Below, piece after piece: positions 8,425 through 33,075 of a stretch of 64,000 bases of DNA. Numbering within the stretch: the stretch's first letter is position 1; each line of letters opens with the position of its first letter. The notes below the pieces were generated by a model. The model was not told the DNA's origin. It worked only from the letters and a program-made list of their open reading frames with translations, and did not search any database. Source of the DNA: Psammoneis japonica. Taxonomy: Eukaryota. The DNA lies in contig QPGO01000162.1 of NCBI GenBank assembly GCA_008632985.1, positions 1-64,000 of the forward strand, read 5' to 3'. A program made the translations under genes and the position numbers.

Positions 8425-9019
8425 AGAAAATGTCCCTTGGGTGGCTTTGACGGGAAACGTAGCAGGCAGAAATTTAAATTTAGATGGGATACTTTGTTCA
8501 AAACTGAATGATTCTCCCGCTGGTAAAGCCTTTTCATATCAACCTGTTGTTGGATATTTTCAAAGTGAAAATGTAGACCGTCACTGTCTACCGGTAAGGC
8601 GTTATCCCGTCAGTATCCGACAAGGACAGCATTTTTGTCGATGTTTTTAAAGAACAGAGGGACGAACTACAATTCATTGTACCAAAACCAAAAACTGAGT
8701 ACCATAGTACGTAAACAAAAACCGGCGAACCGGATAGGCAGGAGACGAAGGTAAAAGGCGGGAAAAATCGCTTCCGAAATCGGCTCTGGCTGTCACGAGT
8801 TGAAGTTGAAGTTGCGGCTACATGAACAACTGACAGCGGCATTCATCAATCACGCATCACAACATTATTTGCATACACAATAACATCATGCGAAACATAA
8901 TGGCTATCCGCGACTCGTCAATCATGTTAGAGATCACGAATGATGCGCCTTAGCAGCATACATGTTTTCTCAATTGCAGTCATCACTGTGCCCGCAGATC
9001 AACCTCTCAAGCAGCCACA

Positions 9020-9739
9020 ATGACGTTCCCATCGCGACACTTGAACTTGCTCTATTTTGTTGGCGTCCCACATGGAGGGTTATTGTTGTTTTATTCGAGG
9101 ACAGGGTTTGCGTGTCCTCAGTTTGAAGACGCGTCCGTCAGCGAAAGCATCTTTTGCGAACACGGTGCGGAAATGGAGGGATTCGGTACGGCTGGAGGAG
9201 GTCAATGCGGTCGTTTTCCTCGACCCACATGTGACGGTCCTTGCACCATCAAGATCGAGCGGTCCCCGTTCAATTTCATGATTAGCAGCTTCCGGCTTCT
9301 TGATGGTAACGGGCAGTTTGTAGCAAGTTCAAACTGTTTGCCAGCGTTTGCGGATGAGCGCAGGTGCACTGCGGTTTGCCTGAACTCCGATGGATCTCCC
9401 CAAAGAGGCACTTTTGTGTGTTCGGACAACGATTTCGGTTTGTGTGAATGCGATGCACTGTGTGAGGAGATGAATGGCGGTGGTGCCGTTGGCGGTAACC
9501 CATCCACGCTGAGTCCAACTGTGGTGCCTGTAACGCCAGCTACGAAGCCACCTGTTGTGAGCCCGACTCCTGCGCCTGTGTCGCCGGCTACGAACCCTCC
9601 TGTTTTGAGCCCGACTCCTGTGCCTGTATTGCCGCCTACAAACCCACCAGTTGCCGAAAGCATAACCAAAAGGGGTGCGACGCTGAACGTAATCGAGTGT
9701 GTGGCTTCAGTGGCGGTGGGCATGGTGCTGGCATCCTAG
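9020..9739 (+). CDS. Secreted/surface protein: Cys-rich domain, Pro/Thr/Val-rich repeat stalk and hydrophobic C-terminus (possible GPI signal)
   Basis: 239-aa ORF with a hydrophobic N-terminal region, a Cys-rich core, three PATxPPV(V/L)SPTP-like repeats and a terminal VASVAVGMVLAS. A degraded paralogue lies at about 12000-13280. Confidence 0.65.
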   Translation: MTFPSRHLNLLYFVGVPHGGLLLFYSRTGFACPQFEDASVSESIFCEHGAEMEGFGTAGGGQCGRFPRPTCDGPCTIKIERSPFNFMISSFRLLDGNGQFVASSNCLPAFADERRCTAVCLNSDGSPQRGTFVCSDNDFGLCECDALCEEMNGGGAVGGNPSTLSPTVVPVTPATKPPVVSPTPAPVSPATNPPVLSPTPVPVLPPTNPPVAESITKRGATLNVIECVASVAVGMVLAS

Positions 9740-11807
9740 AAATGGCATTTGTGGAGACGATGGTATCCTGTGCGCCACTGGCGTTGTACGAAGCATTGTT
9801 AGATTGACATTGATTTGAATTGAGACTGCCATCAAGCACTCGTATCTGACAGAAGACTTCAGATGCAAGTTGTTGTGAACGTTCTATACATACGAAATCT
9901 CTGCATCATTGTATGAAATCTACCGTGAACAATGTTATAGACTGCAAAAGAATGAGCTGTGTGACATTTGCAGCCTAATAGAAACAAGTTGACTCCCTGC
10001 TTTATGTCGGTGGGAGAAATGTGTGGCCTCTCGATGTACCCTTAGTGCACTCTCTCTTTGTGTAGCTCTTTTGGAATCCACGGTTTGGATTCCGGGAGGG
10101 TGTGCAACAAACCACTACCGGTAGATTTGGTGGGACTCGTTGAGTCCTCAGTGGTTCGCACTCTGTTTTCTACGTTTGGCGCCTGTGCGCCGCTTTGGTT
10201 CGGAGCCCTGCCTTCTTCAGAGCCTTTGCTCCTCTTGCAATGATGAGATTGGGACAGCAAGTGAGCACCGGAAGAGCAGTTTAGTGGTGTCTTGGTCTTT
10301 CCGGCCGATTGAGTTTGGACAAGTGTCGCCCCAGTGTCAGACTTCTGGTGAGTGCATCAGCGGAGGTGATCTGCCAGATGCGATGTTTCTCATGTCATTG
10401 GACAAGCAATGAGGACAACTGCAAACCATGTGAGGGAGTCCATTGCATGGCAAGTTTGCCCAGAATGTTGCACTGGGATCAGTGAAGTGACATGGAGTCA
10501 GTGCGATTTTTGAACTTCTGGTGGCCAAGTTTCAAGTTGAGAACAATGGAGCGTGTGCACACACTGTGGCAGAGATGATGTTGCAGAGTTGCCAGCATGT
10601 TGCTTCAGTGGCTGCCTGTTCCTCTCTCTCTCTCTCTCTGAAGTGGCCTTTGTGCAAACCAACAATGTCACCTCACAAGATTCTCCAGTGTGCAAGGGCT
10701 CTGCTGAACTGGCAGCATGTGCTGTGTCCAATCTTGTTTGATCTTCTTGACAATCTCTTGAATCAAACTGTCACCAAATGATGCAAAGAGATCAATCAAT
10801 CAATGTGTTGTCAAAAAAGACCATGCTGCTCTTAGGCCATTCTGGGAGACAATGTTCTTGATGTTCTTGTCAACAACCCCAGTGACAAAGAGTTGATCAA
10901 CACAGTGAGTGGGTTGTGCCCAAGATGCAATTCCACCAAAGTGTTGCGTTGTGGCAGTGCCAAAGGAACAAGAAAGCCAGTTTTCACCACACAGGGGCAG
11001 ACAGGCTCAGCACTTTGCATCAGCATCAGCATCAGGCAAGCCTCCGCCCAAACTTCAGGAGGAAGAAAGAGACGTCCACCCGGCTGCAGCCAGAAAGCAG
11101 ACACACTGGAAACAGTGGCGCCAGAAAGACAGACTCAACTTTCAAAGGACAGCAGGGCACAGCTGAGTCCATGGCTGTGGCTTCTTTTTTCACATGACAG
11201 AGTTTCTGCTTCTGCAAGGAGAGTGGATCATTTCCAGCCTCCAAACACTTTTCTGGGTGCAGGAAAAGTTGCGAAGTTCTTTGGCACCTGTTTCACAAAT
11301 GGCCTCTGCACTCATCATTCATCAACTTAGCTTCCAAAATGATGGAAGCTTCAGAGCAGTGAACTTGGATGTGAGAAGGTTGCAGTCAAGCTGCAGAGAG
11401 CACGCGCACTGCCACACAACATGCAACAACTGCTCTCACTTCAACAGGTTGTGGCAAAGAAGTCAGCATCTGGAAACTTCAGAATTTTTTCAGCCCTGCC
11501 TTCTTTTCAATTCTTCCAACAATGCCTTCCTTTTCCCAACTTGCTGCTCCAGAGAACAATTTGACAAGGGCTGTCCTCCCATGCACTGCCACTGGGGAGG
11601 GAGCACTGTAAAAGCAGTGGATGAGAGCTTCCAAATCATCTCTGTCATTGCCTGCACTTTGAACATCACAGCAGAAAGCAATGATGGTGTGATCCTTGTC
11701 CTGCTTTCCCCCATCACCAGGGAAAGAGCAAATCAGTCATCATTGGATTTTTGCTTTGTTGGTGCCACCCAACATTAAAATTGCACCTTCCTTGTGCCCA
11801 ACTCTTA

Positions 11808-11970
11808 AAAAGATTCAATGGTCCCAAGCATTTGGCAACAAAGATCATTGCTTCATTGCAGAGTTGAGAAAAACTGCTCAACTTCCATCGCATCTTTGGC
11901 ACAAAGTGGTCTGGGAATCTGCCTCATTTTTTGTGACAAGCAATTTAGAAAAACACTGCATGGGACACCA
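11808..11970 (+). repeat. About 165-bp dispersed repeat, copy 1 (copy 2 at 28981-29150)
   Basis: AAAAGATTCA(A/G)TGGTCCCAAGCATTTGGCAACAAAG...TCTTTGGCACAAAGTGGTCTG...GACACCA is present at both sites. Confidence 0.9.
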
Positions 11971-11999
11971 TTCAGTGTGGCAAAAGGCACAGGAAAACT

Positions 12000-13280
12000 T
12001 CTGGCTGTTACGAGCACAAGCTGAAATTGCTGGTGTTGCACCGCACAGAACTCATGACAGCGGCAGTCATCATCAATCATCACCACCACCAACACACAAC
12101 ACAAAAACACTGCTGCACTTCTCTGCATGCAACATCATGGCAAAATGGCCAATCATGCCATCAGGGAGATCACCAATGATGCACAGTCACTGCTGAGAAG
12201 CAGCACACATGTTGCACTCACTGTGCCCATGGGTCAACCTCTCAGCCAGCCACAAGGATGTTCCCATCATGACACTTGAACTTGCTCCATTTCATTGGTG
12301 GCAATCATGGAGTGTTGTTGTTGTTTTCTTTGATGGCAGGTTTTGTGTGTCCTCAGTTCAAAGAGGCGTCTGTCAGCAAAAGCATCTTTTTTGTGAACAT
12401 CGTGGTGCAAAAACGGGGGGAGTCAGTGTGGCTGGAGGAGGTCAATGTGGTCAGTTTCCTTGACCCACATGTGACGGGCCTTGCACTGTCAAGATCAAGT
12501 GGCACCCATTCAATTCCATGATCAGCAGCTTCTGGCTTCTTGGTGACAACGTCACGGGCAGTTTGCAGTGCAAGTTCAAACTGTGTGGCAGTGTTCACAG
12601 ATGAGCACAGGTGCACTGTGCTGGTTAGCCTGAATGCCAGCAAATCCCCTGGAGAGGTGCTTTTGTGTGTTTGGACAATGTTTTTGTTTGTGCAAATGCA
12701 ATGGTGGTGGTGCCATTGGTGGTGACACATCCACAGCAAGCCATTGTGTCACCTGCAATGCCAGCCGGCCACAAACCCACCCAAGGTGAGCCCGACTCCT
12801 GCACCCACAGTGCCAGCTGCAAACCCTCCTGATTTGAGTCTGACTTCTGACTCCTGTGCCTAAAATGCCACCTGCAAACCCACTGGTTGCCAAAAGTGCA
12901 GCCAACAGGGGTGCAGCACTGATCACAGTCAAGTGCACAGCATCAATGGTGGCAGGCGTGGCTCTGGCATCATCCTGGAAATGTCATTGGCAGAGTTGAT
13001 GGGAACCTGTGCCCCGCTGGCATTGTAAGAAGCATCGTTTGATTGACATTGATTTGAGCAGAAACTGCTGCCAAGTGCTCACATCTGACAGAAGACTTCA
13101 GATGATGCAAGTTCTTGCAATCAAGCTTGCATGAAATCTGTGTGCCAGCATTGTGTGAACTCTGCATCTGCTCAACACAAAAATGCAATCCACCGCAGAA
13201 AAGTGGTTGCATGACATTTGTGGCCTGGTGGTGAAGAGTTGACTCAATTCTTCAAAACAGCGGGAAAACTGTGGCCTCTC
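12000..13280 (+). pseudogene. Hypermutated duplicate of the 8785-10030 locus (gene 9020-9739 plus flanks)
   Basis: Collinear similarity, e.g. GACACTTGAACTTGCTC, GGCTGGAGGAGGTCAATG, GACCCACATGTGACGG, GTGAGCCCGACTCCTG and TCTGACAGAAGACTTCAGATG. The copy has frameshifts and stops, and its TAG stop reads TGG. Confidence 0.92.
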
Positions 13281-14687: not shown

Positions 14688-14857
14688 GCCCATTTTTGCA
14701 TTTGGCCGCGCATTGAACTTTTTCAAAATCCGTTTTTTGCCAAATCGAAGGGCAAATGCACACTTCACATGCATTTTAGGGTGTGCACTTACCTTTCAAT
14801 TTTTGAAATGATCAAAATTGCAGGAGTTTAATGCGCTGAACTGTGCAAAAAATCGGC
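14688..14857. repeat. Imperfect about 170-bp palindrome (fold-back/MITE-like)
   Basis: Left arm GCCCATTTTTGCA..GCGCATTGAACT..AATCGAAGGGCAAATGCACAC. Reverse complement of the right arm GCCGATTTTTTGCA..GCGCATTAAACT..AATTGAAAGGTAAGTGCACAC. Confidence 0.6.
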
Positions 14858-16428: not shown

Positions 16429-17808
16429 ATGGCCTACTTGCTTACCGGTACGGCTGATGCTCCTTGTCTCGTATGCCGTTTGCCTCGACATATTTGGAAT
16501 CTCCTCTTCAACCATCGACTTTGTGTTTTGTGTTGTACTTTGTATCTCACTTTTTCTTTTACTCACGACGTGTTGCTCATTTCTTGCCTCTTTTCACTCG
16601 CCCTGCCAATTCACGCCGCTGCGTACACCAAGCTCCACCGTGAGTTGTGCGGCAGTAGTACGTACGATTTGGTTGCTGGCGGTGGAACTGTTGGGTCCTC
16701 CGTCAAGGTTGGCGAGGTCGAAATCAGTGACGAAGGAGACGACCTCGAGGTTTGCTTTTTAATCACCAGTGACTTGACTGCCGAAACTTCCGATGATGGA
16801 TCTCCCACTCAAATCACGCTGGTCCATGTCGAGGCTGGATGCGGAAAAAGCTGTGGAGAACTTAGAGATGAACCCAACGATTTCCATCTCGGCAAGACGG
16901 GGAATCCAAAGACGGGCCATTTCTTCCAAAAGGACTACCACGAGGAGCCGACCATTGACGACTGCGTCACAATCGAAAAGCCCGACTGCGTAGGCGAATA
17001 CGACCAAGTCATGGTTGCCTTTCATGCGGACGTTGTCAAGGAAGGAGGTATGGCCGCTGTGAACTCCTTGTACCCGCGGGAAGAAGTCGAGTTTCGAATG
17101 GTCAGGACTGACGCTGGCAGCGATCCTGATGCTTCCTACTGGGACATCAAAATTGAAAGCATTGCCGGGGATGAAATCCTTAATGGCTATTGCATTGACA
17201 CTGATCGTACCATTGGATCAAACGCTTACTCGGGTACCTTGCACAGCCCTTATGAATGGAATGACATTCCTGCTGGGAATCCTCCCGCCGCCATCGAAAC
17301 TCCTGAGAATCTTCCAGCAATTGCATGGCTCATCAACCACTATGCGCCAGGCCAGCCCTTCAGCGAAGATACCACTGGGCACAATGACATTTTGACCAAC
17401 GTCGCGTGTGCTTCAGATACGAATACTCGACCTCTTTCTTCTGGTGATCTCCAACTCGCCATCTGGACGCTCGCTGGTGACACTCTGACGACAGCCGGAC
17501 TCGGCACACACAGCTTTGCAAGGGGATGTTGGTTGGCCGCTGAGGCCAAGGGCCAAATCGCAGCCAATCCAGACTGGGAACCTGGCTGTGGTGAAGTCTT
17601 CCCCCTTGTCATCATCCCAACTGGGGTTAGTGGCATTTCCAATCAAGTCATCTTTGCACAGGTGACCTTTGCCATTCTTGATGTCCTGTGCTATGGCCGC
17701 GATGAATCGGCCTGGGCCGTAATGGGAGTTGATGGAGACCATTACACTTGCCAGTTCCCTGGTCGTAACTGGGCCACGTACGTTGAGTTCCCCAAGCAGT
17801 GCACTTAA
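16429..17808 (+). CDS. Secreted protein with a putative Cys-Gln thioester domain (TED/TQXA-like) nested in a prokaryote-like beta domain; probable intron 16448-16570
   Basis: GYCID (17185-17199), DLQLAIW (about 17446-17466) and a C-terminal NQVIF (17641-17655). The flanking domain reads LVAGG..VGEVEI..GNPKTGHF..AFHADV and ESAWA..FPGRNWATY. Removing the intron gives the signal peptide MAYLLTVLLISCLFSLALPIHA. Confidence 0.7.
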   Translation: MAYLLTGTADAPCLVCRLPRHIWNLLFNHRLCVLCCTLYLTFSFTHDVLLISCLFSLALPIHAAAYTKLHRELCGSSTYDLVAGGGTVGSSVKVGEVEISDEGDDLEVCFLITSDLTAETSDDGSPTQITLVHVEAGCGKSCGELRDEPNDFHLGKTGNPKTGHFFQKDYHEEPTIDDCVTIEKPDCVGEYDQVMVAFHADVVKEGGMAAVNSLYPREEVEFRMVRTDAGSDPDASYWDIKIESIAGDEILNGYCIDTDRTIGSNAYSGTLHSPYEWNDIPAGNPPAAIETPENLPAIAWLINHYAPGQPFSEDTTGHNDILTNVACASDTNTRPLSSGDLQLAIWTLAGDTLTTAGLGTHSFARGCWLAAEAKGQIAANPDWEPGCGEVFPLVIIPTGVSGISNQVIFAQVTFAILDVLCYGRDESAWAVMGVDGDHYTCQFPGRNWATYVEFPKQCT

Positions 17809-19238
17809 AAGGAACAAGTTGAAAAGGCAAGATTTATGATTTAGCAGAGAAGCAGACTGTTGTTGCATGATTAGGAATGACAAATCGTGGTGAGAGGAAA
17901 AAACTGCTTTGCCTACATAATAGGGATTTGATGCATGTTTTAGTTTGGGCTAACCTGGGGGGCAATGTCCATCGATGTTTTATGTACCGGTAGAAATTCT
18001 GCAAGGTGGAATCAGACTTCAGGCTTTGAAGTATAACGCTGGTTTTAAAAAAGTTTCTCTATAACACAAGTACGCACACGGCGCTTGTTACGGCTGCGAC
18101 GAGGATAAAGGTCCGTGGTGATCCCGGAAGCGATACCTATTGCACTATTGAGGTGACGTAGTGGGATCTACATGGACTACAGAAAAGATGTTTCGCATAG
18201 ATTGAGGCAAAGAAAACGTCGTGGACGATTTATGAAAAATGAGAGTGTATGTTGAGAAAGAGGAGTGGGTATCCTTTTACAATCCAGGTATTCATTGGAA
18301 AGCTCGAAACATGTTTCGTGGCAAACAAGGATACTATATACAACAAGAATGGCAGTAAGGGCTCGCTTTCAGAATCTGACGCTTGCTGCATTTCTACCTT
18401 GATCAGATGAAAAATAGTTTCTGCTTGACTGTATCGGTCAAGATTCTGGAGCAACGTGGGCGGGTAGTCCAAATACCAACAGGAAAGTGGTGCTTGTACT
18501 CTGCTCTCTCTTGTGGGTTGTTTGGGTTCTACGTTGGCGTTTGTTGCGTCCTAAACTTCACGTTACAACAGAACAGCAGCGTTCCAAGTTCCATCTCTAG
18601 ACCTAGCTATGCTGTTGTGACTCCACTTTAGAGAGAACGACCGACTAACTCTAACATCATTGAGAACTGTTTTTGTTAGTCGTAATTACAATATGCATCA
18701 ACTAAACTTAGTTTCGACGAGAGAGAACTTTGTAGAAGCCTGAAATAGATTATGACACAAGTAACCAGCACATGAATCAAACGACACGTCGTAATGAACG
18801 GGAATCGCCTCAAAAAAAAATGTGGCATTCAGAAAATCCATGGGCAACATTGCCGAAAGATTCGCAAAAGTAGAAGTGCTTATGCCACCGGTCACGGCAG
18901 CAAGATACTGTAGTATAGTACGGTAGTTGTATGTGTTTTGGTGGTGGCAAAGATGCCCAAACAACTCCACGTACGTCCTCCTCGTCTTCATAAGACGTAC
19001 GGGAATGTCATGTCGATCACGTATTCCTGCGGCTCTTATATCGCATAGCGACGCGATAGCCGCACTTCTATTTGCCCATTTTTGTTAGACGACTTTGGTC
19101 CCGAGTCGAACCCATGGCTTACAAACGGTTAAAAACAATCGAGAGAGATGCGTTCTGTTGCTTTTGAAGCAATTGCTTCGAAACGTTTTTCAGGGAGTTG
19201 CAGCGTGATGCCGTAATTATCTGTTTCAATCTCACAGC

Positions 19239-20030
19239 TTAATGCATCCCTTTGCTCGCATTGACTGCTCGATGCACCAGGTCCATGATTCGCCAAACTG
19301 GTGGAGTCAATAGAGTTGATCTCAATCGGAAACGAGCCGAAGCATGCTTCAAACAGTCGTGTTCCGGGTACGGAATCCCATCATCAATCCAAACAAAATG
19401 ATGCACGTCCATACTTTGACAGAGTCGTTGATACATGAACACATAATAGTGAATTCCACTGCTCCTGTTCCGCGTCGCATAAACAATGCATTCGTCATGG
19501 CGGCACCATGGGCGGCAACTACAACGTCTTGGCGGTGCAACAAACAACCAATGTCACAAAAACGTGCTGTGTCTTTGTGGTGCACACCTGGAAAACAGAC
19601 AACTGCTGAGAGCGCAACAGTGCCAAAGCAAGTGAAATTGTCAAGAGCTGGTGCATCCAGCCAGCACGATGGTAGCTCTTCTTTAACAGGGGGTGTCATC
19701 AGCACCTTCCTGCACAATGCTGGAAAAGAGCACTGTGGCAACAGAGTTGCAAAGCAAGCAGAAAGCAACAAGGTGTCATTTTGTGCTTCTTCTGTGTCAT
19801 GGGAGTCAAGATGCTGAGCAGGGGCAAGGGTGGAGCACACACTTGGCACTGGCCATGATGAGTTGGCCACTCTCATCTCAGCACTGAGGAAGCAGAGCAT
19901 CACTGCCCAATGTTGTGGCATTGGCATTGCTGCAAACATGACTCGATGGTCAAAAATCAAAACAACATGAGTGCAGGGATTTTCTTGCAACCCCTCTGCC
20001 CCCTGCTGGGAAGAAACCTTTCCATCAGGG
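19239..20030 (-). pseudogene. Glycosyltransferase family 61-like relic
   Basis: DVVVAAHGAAMTNALFMRRGTGAVEF matches the GT61 HGA(G/A)xTNxxF motif. Frameshifted. The 5' part lies in the depleted block and the 3' part (below about 19515) has normal composition. Confidence 0.65.
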
Positions 20031-20231
20031 CATGCATTTGTGCCAGAAAAAGGGTCCAGTGCCCCAACAAAGAAGAAAAGCCCAGAGCTTTGTGGGGGGA
20101 AAGGCAGAGAGCAAGGCACTCCTCTTGCAAAGAGGGTGGTCATGCTGAGTGTTTTGTGGTGGGAGCAGCCAGCAACAGAAGTCCAAGGTGCTGCCACACT
20201 GCTGCTCCAAGCAATGACAACAAACAGCAAC

Positions 20232-20401
20232 AGGAAGAGCACCAACGGGCAAGAGCAACAAGCCAAGGAGCTCCCTGCAAACTGGCAACAGTGGACAACA
20301 CATGCACCAATTTCAGAGAGATTGTTTCGACTGTCCAAAGACATCTGACTGCCACCCACAAACAAACAGTCTGACCATGCACAGTGCAGAGTCAGCTGAC
20401 A
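20232..20401 (-). repeat. 3' LTR of the Copia element
   Basis: Shares GGGCAAGAGCAACAAGCCAAGGAGCTCCCTGCAAACTGG and AAACAGTCTGACCATGCACAGTGCAGA with 27033-27221. On the minus strand it starts TGT, immediately after purine-rich AGGGTGGGA (PPT-like). Confidence 0.85.
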
Positions 20402-23400
20402 TCCCACCCTGATCCAGCATGTCCAACAGAGGAGACAAAGTGGGGTCACAGACAGAACAGAATTGGGAAGTCAACAATCAGCAAAAGTGACACATGGAGA
20501 CTGGATTGCTCTTGAAGAAGTTGGACAGGGTAAAAACAACAAAGGGCAATTCTGCAAATGCCAAAAGACAACAAATCAGGACTCAATGGCGCTGTCCCAT
20601 CATCCGATGGGCATGGCAGGCATGCAGCATTGAGCCAAGAGCTTTGGTGAGGTCACCACTCAGGTTGATGATGCCCGGAATGTGTCAAGTGACAACATGT
20701 CTGTCCTTCTTCCAATCCTGAAGGATGGGCCACTGGGCGTCAATGTGGCCAGATTGTTCAGTCGGAACCCAATTGTTGAGAATCTTGATTGCAGATTCAT
20801 TGTCAACACACAAAAGAGTGGGGCCTTTCTGGACAAAAATCCAAGTTCCCAAAGGACTGACTGAAGGCAGAGAGCAGAGAACCTGTTTGGCGGCAGTGCC
20901 AGCAGCACAAAACTTGGCTTTGGCAGAACTTGCAGCTGTCACCTTTTGCATCAATGCAAAATGGCAGCACCAGCTGGCATGCAAACAACATGCCTGGTCA
21001 TGGAATGATGATTGCAAAGGTCATTGCCACAAACAGCATCCAACAAAGCTTGCAGTTGGGTGAGAGAGTCCAGGGAACCAGGGTGAAAACAGATTCAGCT
21101 CAAGGTGAGCAAAATGATGTGAAGGTGAGGTGGGATCCTTGGTGGGCTTCTTGCATCCCACAACACTTTGCAGGTTGGAGGCACTTTGCAACCCCTTTCA
21201 ATGCATTGCAGTGCATTGGCACCAAACACAAGGCAGACTTCAAGATTGTCATGACAAGAATGCATCCAATGTTGAGGCAGCAAACAATGTGGGCATGCAA
21301 CAATTTGCCAAGAAGGTCATGACACCCAAAACCACAAAGTTCAGCTAACTCCTCATGTTCAGAGGTGCTTTCCATGGGACGAACATCAGAGTGGAATCGG
21401 AGTGGCCTGAAAATCTAAGCCTGCAATTCATCCGCAGCTGAGTGGGGCCATCCATGTGATTTCAAGATGTGGTTGATGCAGCTGTGATGCACGATCGAGG
21501 TGGAGTCATCATGCTGATGGACATCAACACCATTGAACTTGGTGCAAAGACCCAAGTGCTTGAAAGAGTTCACATCCTCACCAGGAACATGGAGTGACTT
21601 GCCAATTGAGTCAAAACTCTTGGTCATGATGGACTCTTTGGGACATGCAATTGCAAAATCATTGACCTGCCAGAGAAGAAGAACATGCTTGCCCTCAAAA
21701 GTGCCAGCACAAATGCACTTGTCATGCACTGTGTTCCAAAACAAAAGTGCAGCATCCACCAAGATGCTGTTGATGTGGTTCTCCCAAAAAATGCCGGACT
21801 CAGGGTGTCCTTGCAAGGCATGCAGGATGGGAAGTGCCTCTGGCCAATCAAGGTCAACACCAAAGCAATCCTTGTGCCAAGAGGCATGTGTGTTGTCAAT
21901 TTGGACATGGAAGGGGGTTGAAGGACAAGGGGAGTGAGCACGCATGCATTGAGCATCACCAGCAAGTGCTTGACAGGCCATGGAAGCCAAGAGAGCAAAA
22001 AACAGCTGTCGGATGGGTTGTTCCACACAGGAGGAGTGGGTGGACTGGAGGCAATGCAAAGCAGGGGCTGCACATGAAGATCCATCACAGCAGCAGTGGG
22101 AGCAGCATGTGCCATCCGTCTTGACGTCATGTTGCCAGTGAGGGTGGAGAATGGCTGCACCTTTGGGGTGCTGGGGAACTGGTTTGCCAAACATGCCCAG
22201 CTCATGGAAGAAGTGGTCCAGTTGCTTGAACTTGCCATCCAGCTCTTGTTCTTCAGGAGTCACTCTTGAGAAAAGAGAGCAAAAATGTTGAAGGCACTGG
22301 CATCCTGGTCAATTGCAGGTGAGAACTCATGGTCCATGCCATCCACAGCAGAGAAATCAATGTCTGGGAAGTGCAGTTCTGCAATGCAGTGTGCACCAGC
22401 CAATGTCAATTCAAGAACATGTTCCTCTTCATCCTCTGCAGGAGGGCAGAAAATGTTGTGCACAACCAAGGTGCACTGGAGGTGTTTGGAATCAAGTTGA
22501 TGCTCTGGAGTGAGCACACAATCTCAAACTCAGGGTTGTCTGCATCATGAAGATGGCAGAGTTCAGCAATGACCTGATCCGCAGTGAAAACATCAACACA
22601 ATCATTGGAAACTGCATGTGCACCCAAAATCATGTTCTTGGCAGCCTTGAGGGAGGAGAAAACACAAGAGGCAGTGCTGTTCCACTTGATGTCTGAGAGA
22701 CAGTTGCAGTTGAATGATGCATCCACAGCAGTGCCTGTGCCAAAGAGTGCATCCAATGGGGAGCATGTGGGATTGCCAGAAAAATGAAACTTCTCCACAG
22801 ATGATTCCATTGATTCAGCAGGGACGGGTCAGGATTTTGTCCTGTGGGAGGCAGTTCATGCCTTCATCACAGCAGAAAAGTGCTTGTCAACCTTGACACG
22901 AGATGTGGCAGGACCATGCTGCATGATGTTCTCAGTGGCATCACGGAGACAGCCAAGGAAGATGCCCTTGACTGAGTTGGAGTGCACCATTGCAGGTTGC
23001 TTCTTGTTCTTGTGGGCCCAAACACGACAACCAAATGTGCACGACACCAAAAAAAATTCCCTCTTTCCTGCAGCAAGAGTGACAGGAGCAACATCATGTC
23101 CTTGGAGGGGCAAGCATTCTTGACACAGAGACAGTGATGGAAAAGCATGGGGCCAGAACTTTGCGGGTGAGTCTGCACCAATGAGCATGGAATGGACAGC
23201 ATTCTGCACCGTCAAGGGACTGCGTTCAATGGGGCCATTCTAATTGGAGGCATCAGCCCCAGACATGCAGATCTTGCAATTGAATTCTTCCTCAAAAAGT
23301 CTGCACAATGCAGGGTCACAGAGTGCAGCTCACCACCTTGATCCACAAATGCACATTTGTCTGGATGTTTTGGTGAGTGCTCATGCAAGAATTAGCAAAT

Positions 23401-26400
23401 CCACATGATTGGAGTTGCTTTTGAAGCAGGAGCAGCACCATGGAGGCAACGGAGGTGCTGTTGGTCACACACAGCAATCCACAAGTCTGGCCACCATCAA
23501 GCCCAAGACAATCAACCACATGGTCTTTGTTCTTGAACTTCAAACCAGCCAATGCAAAATCAACCATGAGTCCTTGATGCACTTGAGCAGCAATGCAGGT
23601 GGAGTTGGGACCCATGGCATTCTCAGTCTGCTTCACTTGGGTGCAGGCAGGGCAAGTGTCCAAATGAGAAGTGCCACATGGGCAAACTTTGGGACCCCAT
23701 CAACATGGTGGCAAGCATCACAAAAGTGGTGATCACTTGGGTTTGCAAGGTGTTGGTGCCATGGGAGATGTTCAGTGTCAGCCTTGAGTGCCTGGACTGG
23801 TGCCTTCTTCTCAAGGCAAGCATCAAAAGGCATGTCTTGACAACAGTGTGAGATCTTCTTCATCTCATGCTGCAGAGCCTTCTTTTGGGGTTGGGGTTGG
23901 GGGTTGGTTTTCCTTGCAGGTGTCAATCACATGCACACAATGACTGCATCACATTCTTTGGCAAATGATGGAGCAGAGATCTTGAGCTCTTGAATGGACT
24001 CATCAACAATGTCATTCATTTTGAGGAGGATGAGGCAAAACACTTCTCATTGATCAGTTGCCCATGAATGATGACATCTTGTCTGGAGCAAAGTTGGTGT
24101 TGCGCGCACCTTGATCGTGGAACTTGAGCAAACAATCAACAGCACAGCCCTTCTTGTGATCACTCATGGATGTGCTGAAGGCCCGTTTGTTGACAAGGGT
24201 CACCTGGAGCTGTGGGGAGGGTGGCAAGCATGTGTGGCAACATGTCCAGCTTTGCTTGCCATGGGGATTCCAAGGTGTCCACAGCCATGGGGGGGCACCT
24301 TGACCAAGCACCAGGTTGACCTTGAGGGGGCATGGGTTGGACAGTGCAAAGGCTTGGCAGTGATGAAGCAGGTCCAGGTCACCAGTGCAGGAGATGCAGA
24401 CTCCAGCATCAAACTGAGCACAGTGCTTGTCACTCTCAAAATGAATGGTGTTTGCAAGGCATTGCACTTGTTGGAGTGTTCAAGGTTGAAAGGTTTGTCC
24501 AATGGTTGCTCAACAGTTCCTCTGCCCTCCCCTGATCTTGATCCCTCCCCTGATCTGCAGTGTGAAGCAATGGATCATTGTCAGGGAGAGTGATGATGCC
24601 AGGTGTTGTCAAAGAGGAGATGGGATGGGTGGCATCCACAACAGCATCTGGAGAAAGAGGTTTTGAACAAGCAGAAGGCAATGAAACGGGGGGGGCTCTT
24701 TCACAGCTGCCCCGCCATCATTGGTGTTGTCTTGGAGAGGAGAAAACAGGCTGCATTGAAGATCCAAAACCAGCTGAGATAGCCCAACTGAAAATCCAAA
24801 GGCAGAGATTCAGCAGGTGGGAGTGCTTGACCCCTCTTCCCAGAGGGCAAGTTTCCCTGTGTGCCAGCAAATGCAGCGGCAAGTTGAGCAGCCTCTCACT
24901 TCAAGAAATGGCACAAAAGCAAATGTGAAATCCCTTGATGCAAGGGTTGTTCTTCAGGATGGGACAATCTTCAAAAAGATGTTCACCAACACAAACTGAA
25001 CAAGGGCAGTTGGCAGCCTTGTTGGGCATGACCTTGAGCTTGAAAACAGATGCTGAGCAAGCAGCATGATGCAAGAGATGGCAGTTGTCTGTTGCAGGTG
25101 CATGAAGCAAGTTCAATTCATTGCAGAGAGACTTTCAAAAGTTTTGTTGCGCATGACCAGTGCATCATCAGGGGTCGAAATGTCTTTGGGTGGAGCAGGT
25201 GCTGGTGGGGCAACGTCAGCATTTGGAGGGGTGTCACAGTCCACAGCATTCACACCAAAAGAAGTGTGGGCAGAGTGTCATCACAATGTTTGTGTTGGTG
25301 GCATGGGTTCCGAGCATGCATGGAACAGTCATCCAAGCAGATCAGACTGTCTGCTGGGCTCAAAAACGTGCTGAGTGTTTCAACAATCTGTTTCTTGGTG
25401 CACTTGCACTTGCAGGCCAACAAATCTTGTTCATGTTCAGCAACCAAAGACAAGGACTTCCTCAAGCACTGGGCATTCTTGACAAAGACAGTCATCTCAT
25501 GAGGGTCATCCAAGGATGAGCCCATGTCAAAAATGAATGTGCTCAGTTGCAAAAAATCCTTGAACAACACAAAACAATTGTTGATCTGCAGGTTGCCTTC
25601 CTTGGGGCATGCATCAACCAATCACACTGCTTCCTCACAAAATGCTGGGTGAACTTGAAAAAGAATCTGTTTCAAGGTGCTGCAGCTGTTGCCACAGCAC
25701 AAGGCAACAATGCTGTGCAAGCGACTGTTCTTGGGGAACATGTTTGAGTGCAAGAGAAGCTTGTGCAAGGCATGCAAAGCTTCAAGGCAATGGATTTGCA
25801 TCTGTTGCAGGAGGTTGATGTCCTGGCTGTCAACAATTGCAAAGCCTCTGTCATCACCATGGTTTCATTTGAATCACCACAAAGGGTGTGCAAAGTGTCC
25901 ACAATCAGTGGCATGGTGCTGGAAGTTGAGATGCCACTGACAAATGCACCATGGAGAGAGTCATTGTGACAGAGACTTGGTTCATGGATGAGAGTCTTAT
26001 GATCTGGGGTTTGGCTGATGACAAAGAGGGAGCCATCAGGTGGGATGAGGTGGTCCGTTCCATCCAGGTGATGCACAGACCCACTGGAGCAGTGAACCAG
26101 TGAGTTCTTGAGGATCACTTTCTCAGACTCCTTGTGGTTGAAATGAGCTCACACATCCTTGGGCAGAGCATCTGGGTGGAACAAGAACTTGGACAAAAGG
26201 GTCATGGTGGGTGTTGTGCCAGAGCTTGTAACTTGGGATGAGGCAGCACCTGAAAGAGCTCAGTTGTCATTCAGTGCATCAATCAGATCTTGAACGTCTG
26301 CAGATCCTGAAGCATGGGACAGTGCCAGTGGGGTCTTGGGAGCATGGACTGGTGGGGATGTGGCAGCTGAGAACAACTTGCCCCAGTCCCTGAATGCATG

Positions 26401-27032
26401 TTGTGTGGAAGGAGAGAAGCACAGACATGAGATGCTGACAAAAACAATCACCTCGGTCTGCTGAGTCAAAAGGGCTGCCTTGATTTTATGGTCCATCATC
26501 TGTTGAGACAGATTGGATGGTTGATCTGATGATGCAGGGATGGAAACCTTGAGAGCGGCTCTGTTGAAGAGCAACATCACTGGAGACATGTTGAGAGGGT
26601 TGAGGGTTTCCAGCAGAATGAGCTCTCAAAGGATGTGATCCTTGAGTTGATCAATGATGTCATCCTTGGTTGTTGCATGCTTGAGATCCTCAAAAAATGA
26701 ATCCAGATTGATGTGATGACACCACAACAAAGGCTGTCAAAGTGCTTGGTGACTTCACTGCTTCAAGCATGTTGTTCAAAGACAACAGAAACCTCCTTGA
26801 GGGTGTCACAAGTGGGCTTCTTGGGGGCAGAAGGAGTCATGGTGGTGGATGAGGTGCACAAAGTTGTTGATCATGCACATGCAGAATCTGGCGTTGGTCT
26901 GCAAGAGCCTGTGCGCTGATGAAAAAAGCTGTTGGGATCAAAAATGGTGGCCGGCTTGTTCAGCTCACAAACCAAATGAATTGCAGCAGAAGTTGCAACA
27001 CAGAAGAATGACAACCTGATGAGGCCACTGCC

Positions 27033-27221
27033 TGTCAGAGCACTGGTGGGCAAGAGCAACAAGCCAAGGAGCTCCCTGCAAACTGGTGACAGTGGATGAC
27101 ACATGCACTGGCAAGAAAAAGTGAGAGAAGATCTCAGAGAGATCATCTCGACTGTCTGCCAAAGACATCTGACCATCATCTGCAAACAGTCTGACCATGC
27201 ACAGTGCAGATTCAGCCAACC
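27033..27221 (-). repeat. 5' LTR of the Copia element
   Basis: Direct repeat of 20232-20401. On the minus strand it ends ...GACA and is followed by GGCAGTGGCC, a possible mutated PBS. Confidence 0.85.
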
Positions 27222-27499
27222 ATCACATGCATTCTCAAAGCCTTGGCATGAGCTGGGAAGCAACCAATGTCAGGTTCTGAGTCTGCCCTTGGACAAAGGT
27301 GATTTGCTGCATTTGTTGTCATTTTCAGTGGTTGAAGGCCATCTGCCAGTCTGCCTGCTGGCAAGCATGCATGAGAAATGAGAAGAAGTTCACATGTGAC
27401 ATCACCTTGCAGCATGGGTGGATGACAGATGCTGCAGTGGGATGATGAAACTGGGTCATGTAGACAGGAAAAGGGAGGGGTTTGGAGTGGGAAACAGCA

Positions 27500-28170
27500 G
27501 AGCAGCACTCAACTTGGTTGAGCAATGGGCAAGTTGGTCAGCAAGGCACTTGGCAACTGCAAGAATGAGACTTTGAAGGCCCCGCTGGAGTGGTGCAGCA
27601 GTGTGATGAGAGAGGCCAAACTGGGTGAAGGGGGGCACATTTTCCCATGCCACATCAGTGGCTTGGAGGGCTCCAGAGGAGGGAGAGTGGAGTGTGCAGG
27701 TGCATGTGGTGTGGGAAGCTTGACATTGAAAGGGGGGGGGGCTTGGAGGTCCAGAACAGGTGGGGGGCTGAATGGTGTTGGTTGGGGCCAAAAAGCAAGA
27801 AATGGGTGAGACACCCATGGGCTCCCAGATGGCCAATGGCAAAAGGGATGAGGTGCGTGCCTTCTTGGTTCAGAGCAGCCACAGTGGTTGATTTGTGCTG
27901 GGGCCCACGACCACTGTTGTTGAACTTCTTCTGCTTGACACTCACATGGTGTGTGCCTTGGCAAAAGGGCTGAGTGTGAGGACAGGCAAGCCATGAGCTG
28001 GAAGGGGTGGCAGCTTTGAGTTGGTGATGTTGATGGCAAGGCACGTGTGACCCAACGGCGAAGCAGTGAAAGGGGTGGGGGTGAGTTGTGTTGGCTGCTG
28101 TTTGCCTGCATCTGTCAGTCACACACAAGCTGCTGGGTTGTGATGCGGGTGTGGGCAGCTTTGACATGCC
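27500..28170 (-). mobile_element. Possible 3' fragment of a non-LTR retrotransposon (RLE-type endonuclease region)
   Basis: KQKKF...AALNQEGTHLIPFAIGHLGAHG resembles the PFAxDxxGxxG motif at the C-terminus of RLE-bearing elements. Heavily mutated. Confidence 0.4.
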
Positions 28171-28384
28171 AGCAGAAACCCAGTTGCCCCATCAGCAATT
28201 CAAAAATTTGCATGACACCAATGGCACTTTCACAATGATGATGATGCAGCAGTGCCTCCAGTGCATTCCCACCACAGCCACACCACAGTGTGTGCTTCTT
28301 GATGTGACAAAGTTAGAAATGGAGCTGCCTCATTGGCGGCATCTCTGATGGTGTTGCTTTCAAATGAATTTGTGGACTGAATGT

Positions 28385-28980
28385 GGCGTGCATGGTGCTG
28401 GCAGCAGCAGGAGCCTTTCACTGCATTTGTGCTGGTGGCAGTTGGAGCCTGTGCACTGCTAGCAGCAATCAAGGCAGTTGCACTCTTTTCATCTGGTGGT
28501 GGTGGCGGGCACCCCTTTGTGCTGCTGGCACTGGCAGTGGTTGGAGGTTTTTGCTGCTGTCAGGCCCCAGCAGCGGTGGCAGTGGCAGCCTGTGCACTGC
28601 CAGCACTGGTGGTGGTGGGAGCCTGCACACCAATGGTGCTGGTGGTGGTTGGAGCCTTTTGCTGCCAACGCTGGTGGCAGCAGGTGCCTGTGCACTGCTG
28701 CTGTGGCACTGGTGGTGATGGGAGCCTGCTGTGTGGCTGCCAGCACTGGCAGCAGTCGGAGCCTGTGTGCCACCAGCCATCAAGGTGGCTGGATCCTTTT
28801 CATCTGGTGGTGGTGGGTGCTCTTGTGTGCTGCTGGCACTGGTGGTGGTTGGATCTTTTTTGCTGCTGCACCCGCGCACTGCTGGCACTGGTGGCAGTGG
28901 GAGCCTGCACACCACTGGCACTGGAAGTGGTTGGAGGCTTTTGCTGCTGGTGCTGGTGGCAGCAGGTGCCTGTGTGCTGC
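28385..28980. repeat. Degenerate minisatellite, unit about 30 bp (GCTGGCACTGGTGGCAGTGGGAGCCTGTGCAC-like)
   Basis: Recurrent GGCACTGGTGG and GGAGCCTG motifs. A higher-order duplication is marked by ATCAAGG...TTTTCATCTGGTGGTGGTGG near 28468-28505 and 28779-28817. Confidence 0.8.
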
Positions 28981-29150
28981 AAAAGATTCAGTGGTCCCAA
29001 GCATTTGGCAACAAAGCAAAGATCATTGCTTCATTGCAGAGTTGAGAAAAGTTGCACAACTTCCATTGCATCTTTGGCACAAAGTGGTCTGCGGCAATCT
29101 GCCTGATTTTTTGTGACAAGTCATTTAGAAAAAACCCACATGAGACACCA
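28981..29150 (+). repeat. About 165-bp dispersed repeat, copy 2
   Basis: Matches 11808-11970. Confidence 0.9.
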
Positions 29151-32100
29151 TGATGGAAGCTGCTCAGTCTAAAGAAAACTGCACTCACAATGTCCTTTTG
29201 CAGCTTCTTTAAGAAAACATGATGGGCCTTGTGTTGATTGCTTTGCAGGGGCATGCAGCAGTCTGGAAGAAAAACACAACAAACTGGCATTCCCAGTGTG
29301 CAGTCAGCCAGCACCCTTTGTGCCAAATGGCAGCACCATTCTCTCATGAACACACTTGAAAAGATGGAAAAGTGAGAATGCAAAGAAAGACATCTGTTCA
29401 TGAAATGGACCAACCCAGCAAGAAGAAGGACTTTGCTCAATGCTTTGAAACACAACTCAAGAGCAAAACAAACCTGGCTGGTTTCTCCTTGGCACCAGCA
29501 GGACAGAAAGACAGCAGGGGGTGCTGGGCCCAGAGAGGCCATTGTTGTTTCAAAAAAATCCTTCTAAAACAGGAGACAGCAATCAAAAGGGATTTTTCAA
29601 GCTGGTGAAATGTCTTCAATTGATTGTGGTCTTCAAAACTTGTTGTGATGATGCAACCCAATGGCACATCCTGCTGATCATGCACTTGCAGAACTTTCAA
29701 AATTAGACAACAACTTTCTGTGTGTCTTCATGTTCTCTCTTTCTCACAGGGAATCAAGAAAAGAAATTGAGGAAAGGAAGGAAAAAAAACCCTGGACAGC
29801 AACCAAAGGAGGCATTTGTTCAAAAAGCTTTTCATTGCTGCTGATGTCATGGGGAGTTTGCAATGATGGAACATCAGCAGTGGCATGATGCAGTCAGCAA
29901 CAGGTTCCTGTTTGGTGGCTCAAACTGTGCTTGACAATGTGCTGCCACTTCTGCTTGTTTTTCCCAAAGCTTCAAAGTGCAGCTGCCTCTGTGGCTGGCA
30001 AGACAATTGCAGACACAAGATTCACAGTGGAAAGAAAAACGTGCTTGGCTGCATTCACATCACACAGCAAGTCACTCTGTTGTGCAACAACATGCAACCC
30101 ATGACTGCAGATGGGCTGTGTTTTAACCCAAGCAACCCAGGTGTCAAGAGGAGCTGAGCAGGGACCCAGAGCATGACTTTTTCAAAGAAAGAGACTTGAA
30201 AGGCTTTGATCTTTGCAGCAATGCAAAAGGCATCAATCAATTGGAAAGTGAATGTCTTGTGAGGGGGGCACAGCTTGGAGCTGTCTGTGCAGTGATGGAG
30301 CAGCATGAACCACAGCACTTTTGGCCAATGGAGCATGAATGGCAAGCTCAAAGGGCAGCTGAAGGTGCACCTCCATGAAAACAGAACTGTGAATGAGGGC
30401 TTCCACAAGAGCACAAAGACATCAGAAATTGGAAAAAGGAAGAAAGGCCAGTGGGACCAAGACCAGCACTGACCCGGAACAAGACATTCTTGATTGGCAC
30501 AATTGCAAAAACAAGAAAAAACTCACAGAGCTGGACCCCAACTGAATGGAACATTGTGAGATTGGGATCTGCGTGCAAGTCTGGTGAGCTGGGCAATCAT
30601 CATGCAGAGCAAAGTTTTTCTTCCAAAGCCACACCAGGAACTGAAGCATGATCTGTGCACACATGATGATGCACAGGTGCAAGGAATCTGTTTGGATGAC
30701 AGCAAGGAGATGACGAGAACAACAATGTCACACAAATGCAGGCATCAGAAGGACTGGGTGTGGCTCATGTGCCATTCTCCCCTCAAGGGTTTGGCAAATG
30801 GATGCAGCAATGTGCTTCTTCTAGCTTCATTTGAAAAGATGCATCAAGATTCAAGGAGCCACAGCAGACATGTCTCATGTGATCTTGGTCTTGTCTGGCA
30901 CCACCAGATTGAAAGACAGGAGTGTTTGATCCTCTCCATTTGATGCATCATCATCTGATGTGCCATCTGGCCTGGGCCTGTCCACATGACCAAGGCTTTG
31001 TTTTTAGCTCCTCAGACTTTGAACAGCAGCACTTGTCAATGTGCTTTGCAGCAACCCTTGCCATGAGGCTTGAATCTAAAAAACCACACATCCAATTTAG
31101 AGTGCTGCTGTGAAATTGTCCAGCAAGGCTGGCATGGGCTGACCCACACTTCCAGCACACTGCAGTGCAGCAGAAGCTTGCAGGATTGGTCAGAAAGGGT
31201 GCAACCAGAGAGTGGTGCCCCACTGGAATGACTGGAGCAGAAGAAATGACACTTGATTTCATTGTGTGGTCTTTCTGGTGATGAACACAACAGCTGCACC
31301 ATGACAGCAAAGGATGGCAACATTCAGAAAACACTTCAAAAGAAACCATGTTCCACCTTTGGATTTGCTTGTGAAGCAAGCACCAGCCAGAGTCTGAAGG
31401 TTGCTCATTTTCACACCATGAAGAACTGCAGCAAGAACAGGGAGGTTGCCACTCAAAGGAGTGAGCTTGACAAGCCAGCAAGTGGAAGAAAGGGGTGGCA
31501 CAGGACTTGGAGGCATGTGACAAGGAGCCTTGAAGGTGTGGCTGGCTGGCCATTGGAAAAGTTGTTTGTCACACATGGAAACAATGCCGGATCTTGTGCA
31601 GAACAGCTGATGCATTCCACAAATGGGCCATTGTCAATTGATGCTAAAGGATGAATCAGACTCATGCTCATCAGGAGGGCAGAAATGCTGATGTGCTCCA
31701 CAAATGGATGATTGTCAATTGACACCAAAGGATGGATCACATTTGTGCTTGTCAGCACTGCAACAGAGGCAGTGCTTTTGCCAAGCAGAGTGAAGAACTT
31801 GTTTGGCCAGCAGGAACAAAGAAGAATGCTGCTTGGACAGATGGACATGGGCAGAAGCAGTTCAGAGATTTGACCAGGCATTTGTTGGTGGTTGTTGCCA
31901 AAGGGAGCAGAATTTGCACTGGATTCTGTGCTGAAAATTCCCTCACTCTGCAGAAAATTGTGAACGAGAATGGCAAGCATGCAAACCACAAGGAGTCAGC
32001 AATGCCAGTGATTTTCCAAAATGAGAAGTGTTGCTTGACTGTGGCAAAGATGAGCAATTGGCAGAGACAGCCAAAACAGGCTGTCAAGGCCCAAGGTGAC

Positions 32101-32939
32101 ACCCTCTGAGAAGGGCAACACCAGTGCAAGAGGGTGTGTGGAAACAAATGCAGCAGGTGCTGAGGGTGTGAGCAGCTGACATGAAAAAGTGCACGACTTG
32201 CATCCAGATTCTCCAGAGCTTCTCAACAAAGTTTGAGTTGCCACAATGCATTTTTCTCAACTCACATGCATTGGAGTGTGCTGCCACAAACTTTTTTGCT
32301 CCCTCCCTTGATGAAGCCAGAAAGCACAGAAATGATTTCTCTTGCATTGCTGGCAAGCAGGTTGGCCACCATTTGTCTTTGTCTGGTGCAACAACTTGCT
32401 GAGTGTGAGCTGGACAACATGAATTCTGGGCTGGTCACTTGAAAGGTTGGGATGCTGGACTGCATCAATGCAGTGGTGCACCACTTGCTTCAACGATGAA
32501 TGTGTTGCTCTCATTGAGGTTGTGTCAACTTGTTGATGCACGTCTTTTGCGTTTGTTCCTCTTTTGTGCTTCTTCTTTTGAGGCTCTTTTGCATCAATGC
32601 CAACAAGCTCTCATCATTTGCTGTCACCAGAAATGGGCTGATTTTCTTGTTCATGGTGTGAGATTGAGAAGAGCAATGGCTCAACATGTCATTGAGCCTG
32701 TTGGAAGGACCAGGCCCTGTGTTCTTTGTGGACAAAGTGTTGCTGAGTTCCCACACCAGCTCAGCCACATTTGGCTTGCTGTTGCTGCTTTCTTTGCTCC
32801 TTGCTGCAGCTCTGAAGCCATCCATCATCTGAGGATGCCACAGGGATGTTTTCTGTTGTTCCCAAGGCCCCTCCTTTGAGGACTGCCAGCTGATGGGTGT
32901 CTGGAGCAGTTGGTCAGAGAAGGCATGATGGAATGTGCA

Positions 32940-33075
32940 GGTGATGAAACCCCTGTGTGCCACTGGCATTGCAAGAGGCATTGTCAGATTGATGTTGATT
33001 GAGTTGAGAGTTGAGACTGCCATCAAGGGCGTGCATCAGACAGAAGTGCAAAACTTCAAATGCAAGTTCTTGGAA
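32940..33075 (+). repeat. Third, partial, mutated copy of the 3' flank of gene 9020-9739
   Basis: CCTGTGTGCCACTGGCATTGCAAGAGGCATTGTCAGATTGA...TTGAGACTGCCATCAAG...TGCAAGTT matches 9767-9871. Confidence 0.8.

Follow-up and report, generated by a model that had tools for sequence, protein, structure and literature searches.

A Decayed Ty1/Copia Element in the Window

The DNA analyzed here, called the window, is a stretch of 64,000 nucleotides from Psammoneis japonica (GenBank assembly GCA_008632985.1, contig QPGO01000162.1, positions 1 to 64,000 of the forward strand), in which an open reading frame (ORF) of 282 amino acids corresponds to the reverse transcriptase (RT) domain of a decayed Ty1/copia element (Table 1). 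In the block of DNA that contains this element, two context-specific transitions are near completion, namely CpG to TpG or CpA and TpA to TpG or CpA. As related environmental copies show, the TpA change is separate from CpG decay, hits single copies on either strand in an uncoordinated manner, and prefers 5′-TAY-3′. The best explanation of the data as a whole, to which a probability of about 0.75 can be assigned, is that a dead copia RT has been altered both by a mutator that targets mobile or silent DNA and by deamination of methylated CpG.

The translation of the ORF contains all of the strings quoted in a preliminary description of this DNA (WQH, THSSC, CIC, LLWQVNDFA, and CCSH) and, as stated there, no Tyr. 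His and Cys make up 9.4 and 6.7% of the residues and Arg only 1.0%, whereas relatives contain 3–5% Tyr and 6–8% Arg. At the DNA level, this stretch holds a single TA, which lies in the TAG stop codon, against 50.9 expected, and eight CG against 53.9 expected, and it is enriched in CA (99) and TG (100), of which about 52 each would be expected.

A phmmer search with the ORF against a database of 1.84 billion representative proteins gave 1005 matches at E ≤ 0.001, the best of them with an E-value of 3.4e-78 and 51% identity; the closest named relative is a protein of Nitzschia inconspicua. The score of the ORF against Pfam RVT_2 (PF07727) is 16.6 bits, below the gathering cut-off of 31.6 bits, a shortfall that reflects the decay of a sequence whose lineage is itself divergent; among six scanned relatives, five pass the cut-off (35.7–64.8 bits) and one, the 1280-residue protein P0002, fails it (28.1 bits). 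In a tblastn comparison, residues 112–1276 of P0002 are colinear with positions 23998 down to 20595 on the minus strand. Long relatives carry a gag-pre-integrase domain, an integrase SH3-like domain, and then RVT_2, and in the element, too, the integrase precedes the RT, in keeping with the gene order of copia. Because the phmmer relatives bear RVT_2, the pieces of P0002 are colinear, and an SH3_retrovirus match is found upstream, the ORF can be identified as the RT of a Ty1/copia retrotransposon that belongs to the diatom lineage and is dead. Diatom Ty1/copia elements, which are reportedly classified into “CoDi” groups, have the same order of pre-integrase, integrase SH3, and RVT_2 domains, and the motif RQVDDFA is present in the relatives; the copy in the window differs in being dead. 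A short repeat downstream of pol matches a second segment of the window (Table 1) at 181 positions with 31 mismatches, and 6 of their 45 CA/TG pairs are split as CA in one member and TG in the other. These two segments, which are only about 235 bp long and weakly supported as a pair, may be remnants of long terminal repeats (LTRs).

Direction of the Two Changes

The ORF was aligned by MAFFT with 65 relatives spanning the RT domain. Tyr is found in 49 of the 65 relatives at the last position of WQH, in 52 at the second position of THSSC, and in 63 at the last position of CIC, and the Trp of LLWQ is aligned with Arg in 62. When only the 10 closest relatives are considered, their consensus at the same places reads WQY, RRSR, TYSSC, IY, and LLLRQVDDFA, as the preliminary description had anticipated. 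Relatives thus have Tyr, Arg, or Asp, and not His or Cys, at these positions, so that the direction of change is from TA to CA or TG and from CG to CA or TG, in agreement with the proposal of the preliminary description that His and Cys stand for Tyr, and Trp, Cys, His, and Asn for Arg or Asp. At the codon level, CAY and TGY occupy the expected TAY places, and the site corresponding to RRSR is tgc tgc tcc cac where Arg-Arg-Ser-Arg would allow CGC CGC TCC CGC.

The loss of the catalytic Asp-Asp pair, which had also been claimed, is seen directly in the translation, where the motif reads V-N-D. The columns of this motif are Arg in 62, the first Asp in 63, and the second Asp in 64 of the 65 relatives. 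The codon in the place of Arg is TGG, and AAT follows GTC in the place of Asp; Val-Asp was converted to gtc|aat when the CpG that spans the codon boundary lost its G, which removed the first catalytic Asp.

As a control for chance, each relative was tested in a leave-one-out manner at eight conserved-Tyr columns of the RT (520 cells), of which 397 were Tyr, 55 Phe, and 17 His or Cys. The ORF has His or Cys at seven of these eight columns (Fisher p = 1.2e-9 versus relatives), and protein conservation therefore does polarize the TpA change, as was suggested at the outset. Two relatives are worth recording individually. P0005 retains seven of eight conserved Tyr and none of eight conserved Arg, a pattern that points to CpG decay alone, and P0114 has His or Cys at five of the eight Tyr columns, yet its RVT_2 score is 64.8 bits.

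The same direction is obtained for the whole of pol, for which 34 relatives of at least 900 amino acids were compared by tblastn; the 395 positions retained were those at which 10 or more relatives could be compared and at least 50% of them agreed. None of the 21 conserved Tyr is kept (nine are His, nine Cys, and three other residues), and only 3 of the 30 conserved Arg remain, with seven replaced by Cys, six by His, five by Gln, and one by Trp, while other residues are mostly retained (Gly 34/41, Trp 6/7, His 11/14). Because conserved Tyr became His and Cys equally often, both strands are equally affected; the choice between the two does not depend on the base preceding the Tyr codon (purine and pyrimidine, respectively: five and four for His, four and five for Cys). 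When the codons were compared with the consensus of relatives, 157 mismatches were found, of which one transition would convert 30 to a TA-containing and 31 to a CG-containing codon; the remainder consist of 11 other transitions, 38 transversions, and 47 differences that need at least two changes. TA or CG is thus restored by 61 of the 72 single-transition differences and, per site, such transitions are about six times commoner than other transitions. The direction of the TpA change is consequently fixed in three ways: by the conserved Tyr, by the unmutated paralogue of a duplicated gene, and by a family consensus at which CA and TG occur at the same site, the latter two being described below.

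These data bear on the proposal that the composition is native or selected and involves no mutation, the lineage simply using His and Cys or avoiding TA and CG. The His and Cys residues of P0114 would agree with such a proposal, as would a high-copy repeat at 33–41 kb, most copies of which are poor in TA. However, the relatives have Tyr, Arg, and Asp at the places in question, a catalytic Asp has been lost and pol is frameshifted, and one and the same consensus-TA site is CA in some copies of the environmental family and TG in others; moreover, the 150 matches listed include no close relative that is intact and active and yet shares this pattern of His and Cys. A native composition is therefore extremely improbable.

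Depleted Blocks and a Duplicated Gene Region

The two changes are not confined to the element. The window is divided into depleted blocks, in which the observed/expected ratio is about 0.1 for CpG, 0.02 for TpA, and 1.9 for CA/TG, and normal blocks, in which it is about 1 for CpG and 0.5–0.7 for TpA, non-coding DNA included. Depleted blocks adjoin ordinary genes, and several of their edges are sharper than about 100 bp; the low edge of the block with the copia element, for example, is located at about 19520–19533. In three further blocks (33000–41000, 51500–53500, and 59000–60300), TA has been lost and much CpG is kept, and no block with the reverse combination, CpG lost and TA kept, was found among the blocks of the window.

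A gene region of normal composition, which encodes a Pro-rich, probably secreted protein, has a duplicate 3.2 kb away inside a depleted block (Table 1), and this pair serves as a control at the DNA level. Among the 71 CG of the normal copy, 52 are CA or TG in the duplicate and 6 are kept; among its 37 TA, 23 are CA or TG and 1 is kept. Only the copy within the depleted block has changed. The two copies also differ by a swap of CA for TG at 25 of 223 CA/TG steps, which is expected if an ancestral CG or TA was resolved differently in each. No usable flanking-context signal was obtained from this small sample.

A change restricted to TA produces no new stop codon. Tyr is removed, the codons ATA, TTA, CTA, and GTA are changed, and TAA and TAG become Gln, Trp, or TGA, which leads to long ORFs in the depleted blocks. 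Consistent with this, long overlapping ORFs occur in all six frames at 19500–25000 and in the other depleted blocks (45 ORFs of at least 60 amino acids in 6 kb). A Pfam scan of 146 of the 162 window ORFs of at least 110 amino acids found almost nothing in these blocks, and their long ORFs are spurious, being due to the near absence of TAA and TAG.

An artefact of sequencing or assembly, such as the misreading of modified bases in repeats, has to be considered, since only one run, which is possibly the source of the assembly, is listed as containing the stretch, and no RNA run is listed. Contigs built from k-mers of this run (X1) reproduce 21000–33103 at a depth of about 30–40, which is normal, and mostly with 0 differences; two other runs, X2 and X3, placed almost nothing on the window. 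The copia block is thus a single copy that is reproduced in read contigs, which speaks against a polishing artefact; the copy also has frameshifts and transversions, and unrelated metagenome assemblies contain the same TA-specific pattern. The probability of an artefact is accordingly close to nil.

The reads also characterize the high-copy repeat at 33000–41000, for which contig depths add up to 4,000–22,000, whereas single-copy DNA has a depth of about 33. The repeat unit is probably about 7.6 kb long, as suggested by a joint in the reads between 40929 and 33302. The observed/expected ratio in this repeat is 0.05–0.1 for TA and 0.5–0.75 for CpG. Among the 38 best-supported differences between the window and the majority of copies, 18 are CA or TG in the window and CG in the copies, and 4 involve TA, so that the TA-poor state is family-wide and the CpG loss copy-specific. 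Either TA was lost before amplification or dead DNA was amplified. A Pfam scan and a protein-atlas look-up of its 421-residue ORF revealed no protein family for the repeat.

Copy-by-Copy Mutation in an Environmental Copia Family

Metagenome contigs were scanned with the RT alignment, which yielded 80 loci with TpA observed/expected ratios of 0.29–0.83. A single family, with 78–92% DNA identity to the reference locus L036, comprises 52 of them; three near-identical duplicates (L025, L046, and L059) and 25 other loci that aligned poorly were left out. Transitions were scored against the family majority, and the eight copies with a rate of at least 0.20 at consensus-TA sites are referred to as hit copies.

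The frequency of consensus-TA transitions ranges from 0.022 to 0.349 per site across copies, a 16-fold variation, while transitions at other sites in the eight hit copies are limited to 0.012–0.041. In the hit copies, 813 consensus-TA cells are represented by TA in 350, TG in 247, and CA in 184, whereas in the other 44 copies 4016 cells are represented by TA in 3314, TG in 296, and CA in 260; 57% of TA steps are thus lost in the former and 17% in the latter. CG is kept to the same extent in the two groups (73.5 and 74.1%, respectively), CG transitions amount to 0.05–0.2 in all copies of the family, and CpG loss does not track general divergence within it (Spearman 0.14, not significant). The reverse change, from CA or TG to TA, occurs at only 1.3–1.8% in the hit copies.

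Sites that are mutated in two hit copies are about as numerous as expected from independence (for example, 50 observed versus 44.5 expected), and for most pairs of copies the direction differs, with CA in one copy and TG in the other, at roughly one-third to one-half of these common sites. Overlap at the level of chance together with opposite directions indicates independent events on single copies and TA as the ancestral state. The hit sites show no clustering over the length of the element, and runs of the same direction follow the random expectation in all eight hit copies.

The sequence context of the change is specific. In the hit copies, A-to-G transitions occur at a frequency of 0.269 at TA, 0.045 at AA, 0.054 at CA, and 0.021 at GA, so that an A preceded by T is changed 5 to 13 times as often as an A preceded by any other base. 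On the 3′ side, the frequency is 0.39 for TAC, 0.30 for TAT, 0.17 for TAG, and 0.14 for TAA. Given this preference for TAY, TA should persist in saturated DNA as YTAR, a context that is disfavoured whichever strand is attacked. In the depleted blocks of the window, 37 of 56 surviving TA are YTAR and only 1 is RTAY, compared with 171 and 290, respectively, of 941 in normal blocks (Fisher p = 4.7e-14 for YTAR and 7.5e-8 for RTAY). The survivors in the window are thus mostly YTAR, and the same TAY rule holds in two unrelated data sets. Within the copia element of the window, where the change is saturated, the rule is no longer visible in the direction taken at Tyr codons.

These observations make it possible to judge two processes that could generate the TA change indirectly. 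In antibody hypermutation, error-prone resynthesis of the polymerase eta type mutates A at WA motifs, and the TA change could similarly be a by-product of mismatch repair at methylated CpG, which would account for the occupation of the same window blocks by both changes. The sparing of AA relative to TA is difficult to reconcile with such a motif, and the TA change varies among copies while CpG loss is equal in hit and unhit copies; the window also has blocks in which TA is gone and CpG largely kept. A by-product of repair is thus quite improbable. The second process is editing of RNA or cDNA by an ADAR- or ADAT-like enzyme during retrotransposition, fixed on integration. The targets are indeed retrotransposons, and the hit copies have a modest excess of A to G on the sense strand (247 TG versus 184 CA, p = 0.003), although this excess can follow from the TAY codons for Tyr on the sense strand. 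Both strands are heavily hit without coordination, as is also seen in the nine His and nine Cys at conserved Tyr of the window element; furthermore, the change also extends to a segment of a host gene whose original lies 3.2 kb away, and unrelated sequence in whole blocks shares the same state with sharp common edges. Editing during retrotransposition is therefore very improbable.

Several points weigh against the preferred explanation, a mutator acting on mobile or silent DNA in addition to CpG deamination. The eight hit copies were picked after their rates had been seen, copies with a higher TA rate tend to have more transitions elsewhere too (Spearman 0.45, p = 9e-4), and the environmental family may stem from several hosts in the metagenomes. 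The reads come from one run, possibly that used for the assembly, and so do not constitute independent support. The TA-poor state of most copies of the 33–41 kb repeat fits an attack copy by copy less simply. Neither an enzyme nor a base modification nor a de novo mutation was observed here, and, because the A of TAY is the T of RTA on the other strand, the attacked base is ambiguous at this level. Finally, the window copy carries frameshifts and transversions, so it cannot show that the TA change killed the element.

This last point concerns the claim in the preliminary description that the TpA change inactivates transposable elements. The change of conserved residues stands, but the frameshifts and the 38 transversion differences are also present in the copy, and the inactivation itself receives indirect support from the environmental family. 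Because the hit copies have transitions at 20–35% of TA sites and at 1–4% of sites elsewhere, the TA change can come early and be massive.

Nature of the Putative Mutator

The data show a strand-symmetric process at the level of DNA that converts A:T to G:C specifically at TA and is confined to mobile or silent DNA. In the preferred explanation, TpA would be changed by a mutator of the kind described in Bigelowiella natans, aimed at such DNA, and CpG would be lost from these domains simply because methylated cytosine is deaminated. The mutator may be an ADAT/TadA-type adenine deaminase that acts on DNA and the product of which, inosine, would be read as G; this identity is possible, with a chance somewhat below even. 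The natural target of ADAT/TadA is A34 of tRNA, which follows the invariant U33 and, in the bacterial substrate, precedes C35, and early base editors derived from TadA prefer YAC. The candidate fits because the preference for TAY, strongest at TAC, matches both the tRNA target and the YAC preference.

Alternatively, the attacked base may be thymine in 5′-RTA-3′, converted for example to 5-hydroxymethyluracil or a further modified base, which would mispair with G and result in T to C. The signature is symmetric in this respect, as noted above, and in dinoflagellates 5-hydroxymethyluracil takes the place of thymine, above all in TpA and TpC. However, neither a thymine-modifying enzyme nor the modified base was seen here, and T to C is not raised outside TA (0.021–0.054); this route is unlikely.

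In its widest form, the proposal of a mutator leads to the view that diatoms possess a defence that is the chemical reverse of fungal repeat-induced point mutation (RIP), changing A to G at TAY on either strand, copy by copy, that it is shared by stramenopiles and rhizarians as an old form of immunity, given that a change restricted to TpA has been measured in a chlorarachniophyte, and that it is probably carried out by an ADAT/TadA-like enzyme. This view is tentative and falls just short of an even chance.

Comparison with Known Systems

The only precedent found for a signature restricted to TpA is a preprint on Bigelowiella natans, in which TpA-specific hypermutation of integrated viral DNA was followed in mutation-accumulation lines (Mettrop et al., bioRxiv 10.64898/2026.01.13.699255). 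According to the available text of that preprint, two viral regions acquired 231 mutations, of which 230 are A-to-G or T-to-C changes, each of them at TpA; the rate is about 6e-7 per site per generation and is seen in some lines only, and the authors propose an adenine deaminase like ADAT2 (bioRxiv 10.64898/2026.01.13.699255). As far as can be judged from the same text, the two systems have in common that TpA is changed only to TpG or CpA, on either strand and in foreign or silent regions, and that activity is restricted, there to some lines and here to some copies; in addition, sequences depleted of TpA over the long term are there enriched in reverse transcriptase and DDE domains. They differ in the host, which is a chlorarachniophyte and not a diatom, in the measured targets, which are giant-virus and virophage inserts and not LTR retrotransposons, and in extent, since the TpA observed/expected ratio of the insert is a mild 0.45 compared with about 0.02 here; moreover, the rate was measured directly in B. 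natans and is deduced from sequence in the present case. The available main text of the preprint mentions neither CpG nor diatoms nor stramenopiles, and a flanking-base preference was not found in it.

RIP of ascomycete fungi is similar in that context-specific transitions with the character of a defence ruin mobile elements and leave a dinucleotide signature in blocks. In RIP, however, CpA is changed to TpA and TA is thereby enriched, whereas here TA is erased and CA/TG enriched; RIP mutates both duplicates, whereas here only the copy in the depleted block was changed; and RIP creates stop codons, which a change restricted to TA cannot do. In diatoms, transposons have been reported to be methylated, and DNMT4, a protein related to fungal RID, is of unknown function (Hoguin et al., 2023, PMC9998398, as far as the consulted part of that paper goes). 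Decay driven by methylation shares with the present case the change of CG to TG or CA confined to repeat blocks, but it accounts for only one of the two changes, and CpG loss in the environmental family is equal whether or not a copy shows the TA change.

In the literature searched, no report of TpA hypermutation in diatoms was found. New are the diatom host, the LTR retrotransposon and duplicated gene fragment as targets, a change that has reached saturation and is distinct from CpG decay, and the preference for TAY. To our knowledge, hardly any case is known in which eukaryotes defend themselves by the natural, enzymatic editing of A to G in DNA. If the proposal is true, editing restricted to TpA extends to a major group of phytoplankton and to transposons. 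TAY provides an extended motif that can be tested, and the TA change can be separated from the decay of methylated CpG. Since diatoms are transformable, the enzyme could be sought by knock-out. In practical terms, gene callers and repeat annotators will misread depleted blocks, where ORFs are spurious and proteins fall below Pfam thresholds.

Other Features of the Window

The coordinates of the features discussed above are collected in Table 1.

Table 1. Positions of the copia element, the depleted blocks, and the duplicated gene region in the window.
Feature	Position	Strand	Remarks
RT ORF	21415..22263	minus	282 aa from GTG; RT domain of decayed Ty1/copia element
RT ORF, stop to stop	21418-22308	minus	297 aa
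Catalytic motif	21658..21672	minus	W-Q-V-N-D; R-Q-V-D-D in relatives
pol remnant	20595..23998	minus	Pre-integrase, integrase, RT, and RNase H region; at least 8 pieces in different frames
SH3_retrovirus match	22859-23239	minus	Weak, 21.5 bits; upstream of RT
Short repeat	20172..20406		Downstream of pol; paired with 26983-27227; may be LTR remnant
Repeat partner	26983..27227		Paired with 20172-20406
Depleted block with copia element	19550..33000		About 13.5 kb; single copy in reads
Depleted blocks, rough limits	1-3500, 10500-14500, 19550-33000, 41000-43900, 54000-58500		From dinucleotide counts
Gene region of normal composition	8785..10032	plus	Mutated duplicate 3.2 kb away
Duplicate of gene region	12000..13280	plus	Inside depleted block

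The normal blocks contain genes for ribosomal protein L1, SGT1, a PP2C phosphatase, and MYG1. For the last of these, a host gene, the best named matches are from Seminavis robusta (74% identity) and a Chaetoceros entry (72%), which identifies the host as a diatom; a protein-atlas look-up of SGT1 gave no taxon.

In the blocks at 51500–53500 and 59000–60300, TA is almost absent and CpG is present at normal density, and the latter block overlaps an ORF with weak F-box matches (59679–60332, minus strand). Either these sequences were hit recently or they may be genes that are poor in TA. Inside one depleted block, a DUF6824 match at 42731–43090 on the plus strand (17.7 bits, below the cut-off) may represent another decayed gene copy. 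An internal tandem repeat is located at 28381–29113. Its period is about 282 bp, and the segments 28589–28698 and 28871–28980 are 84% identical; it encodes Pro/Ala/Thr-rich runs in several frames, and the reads show many alternative joints.

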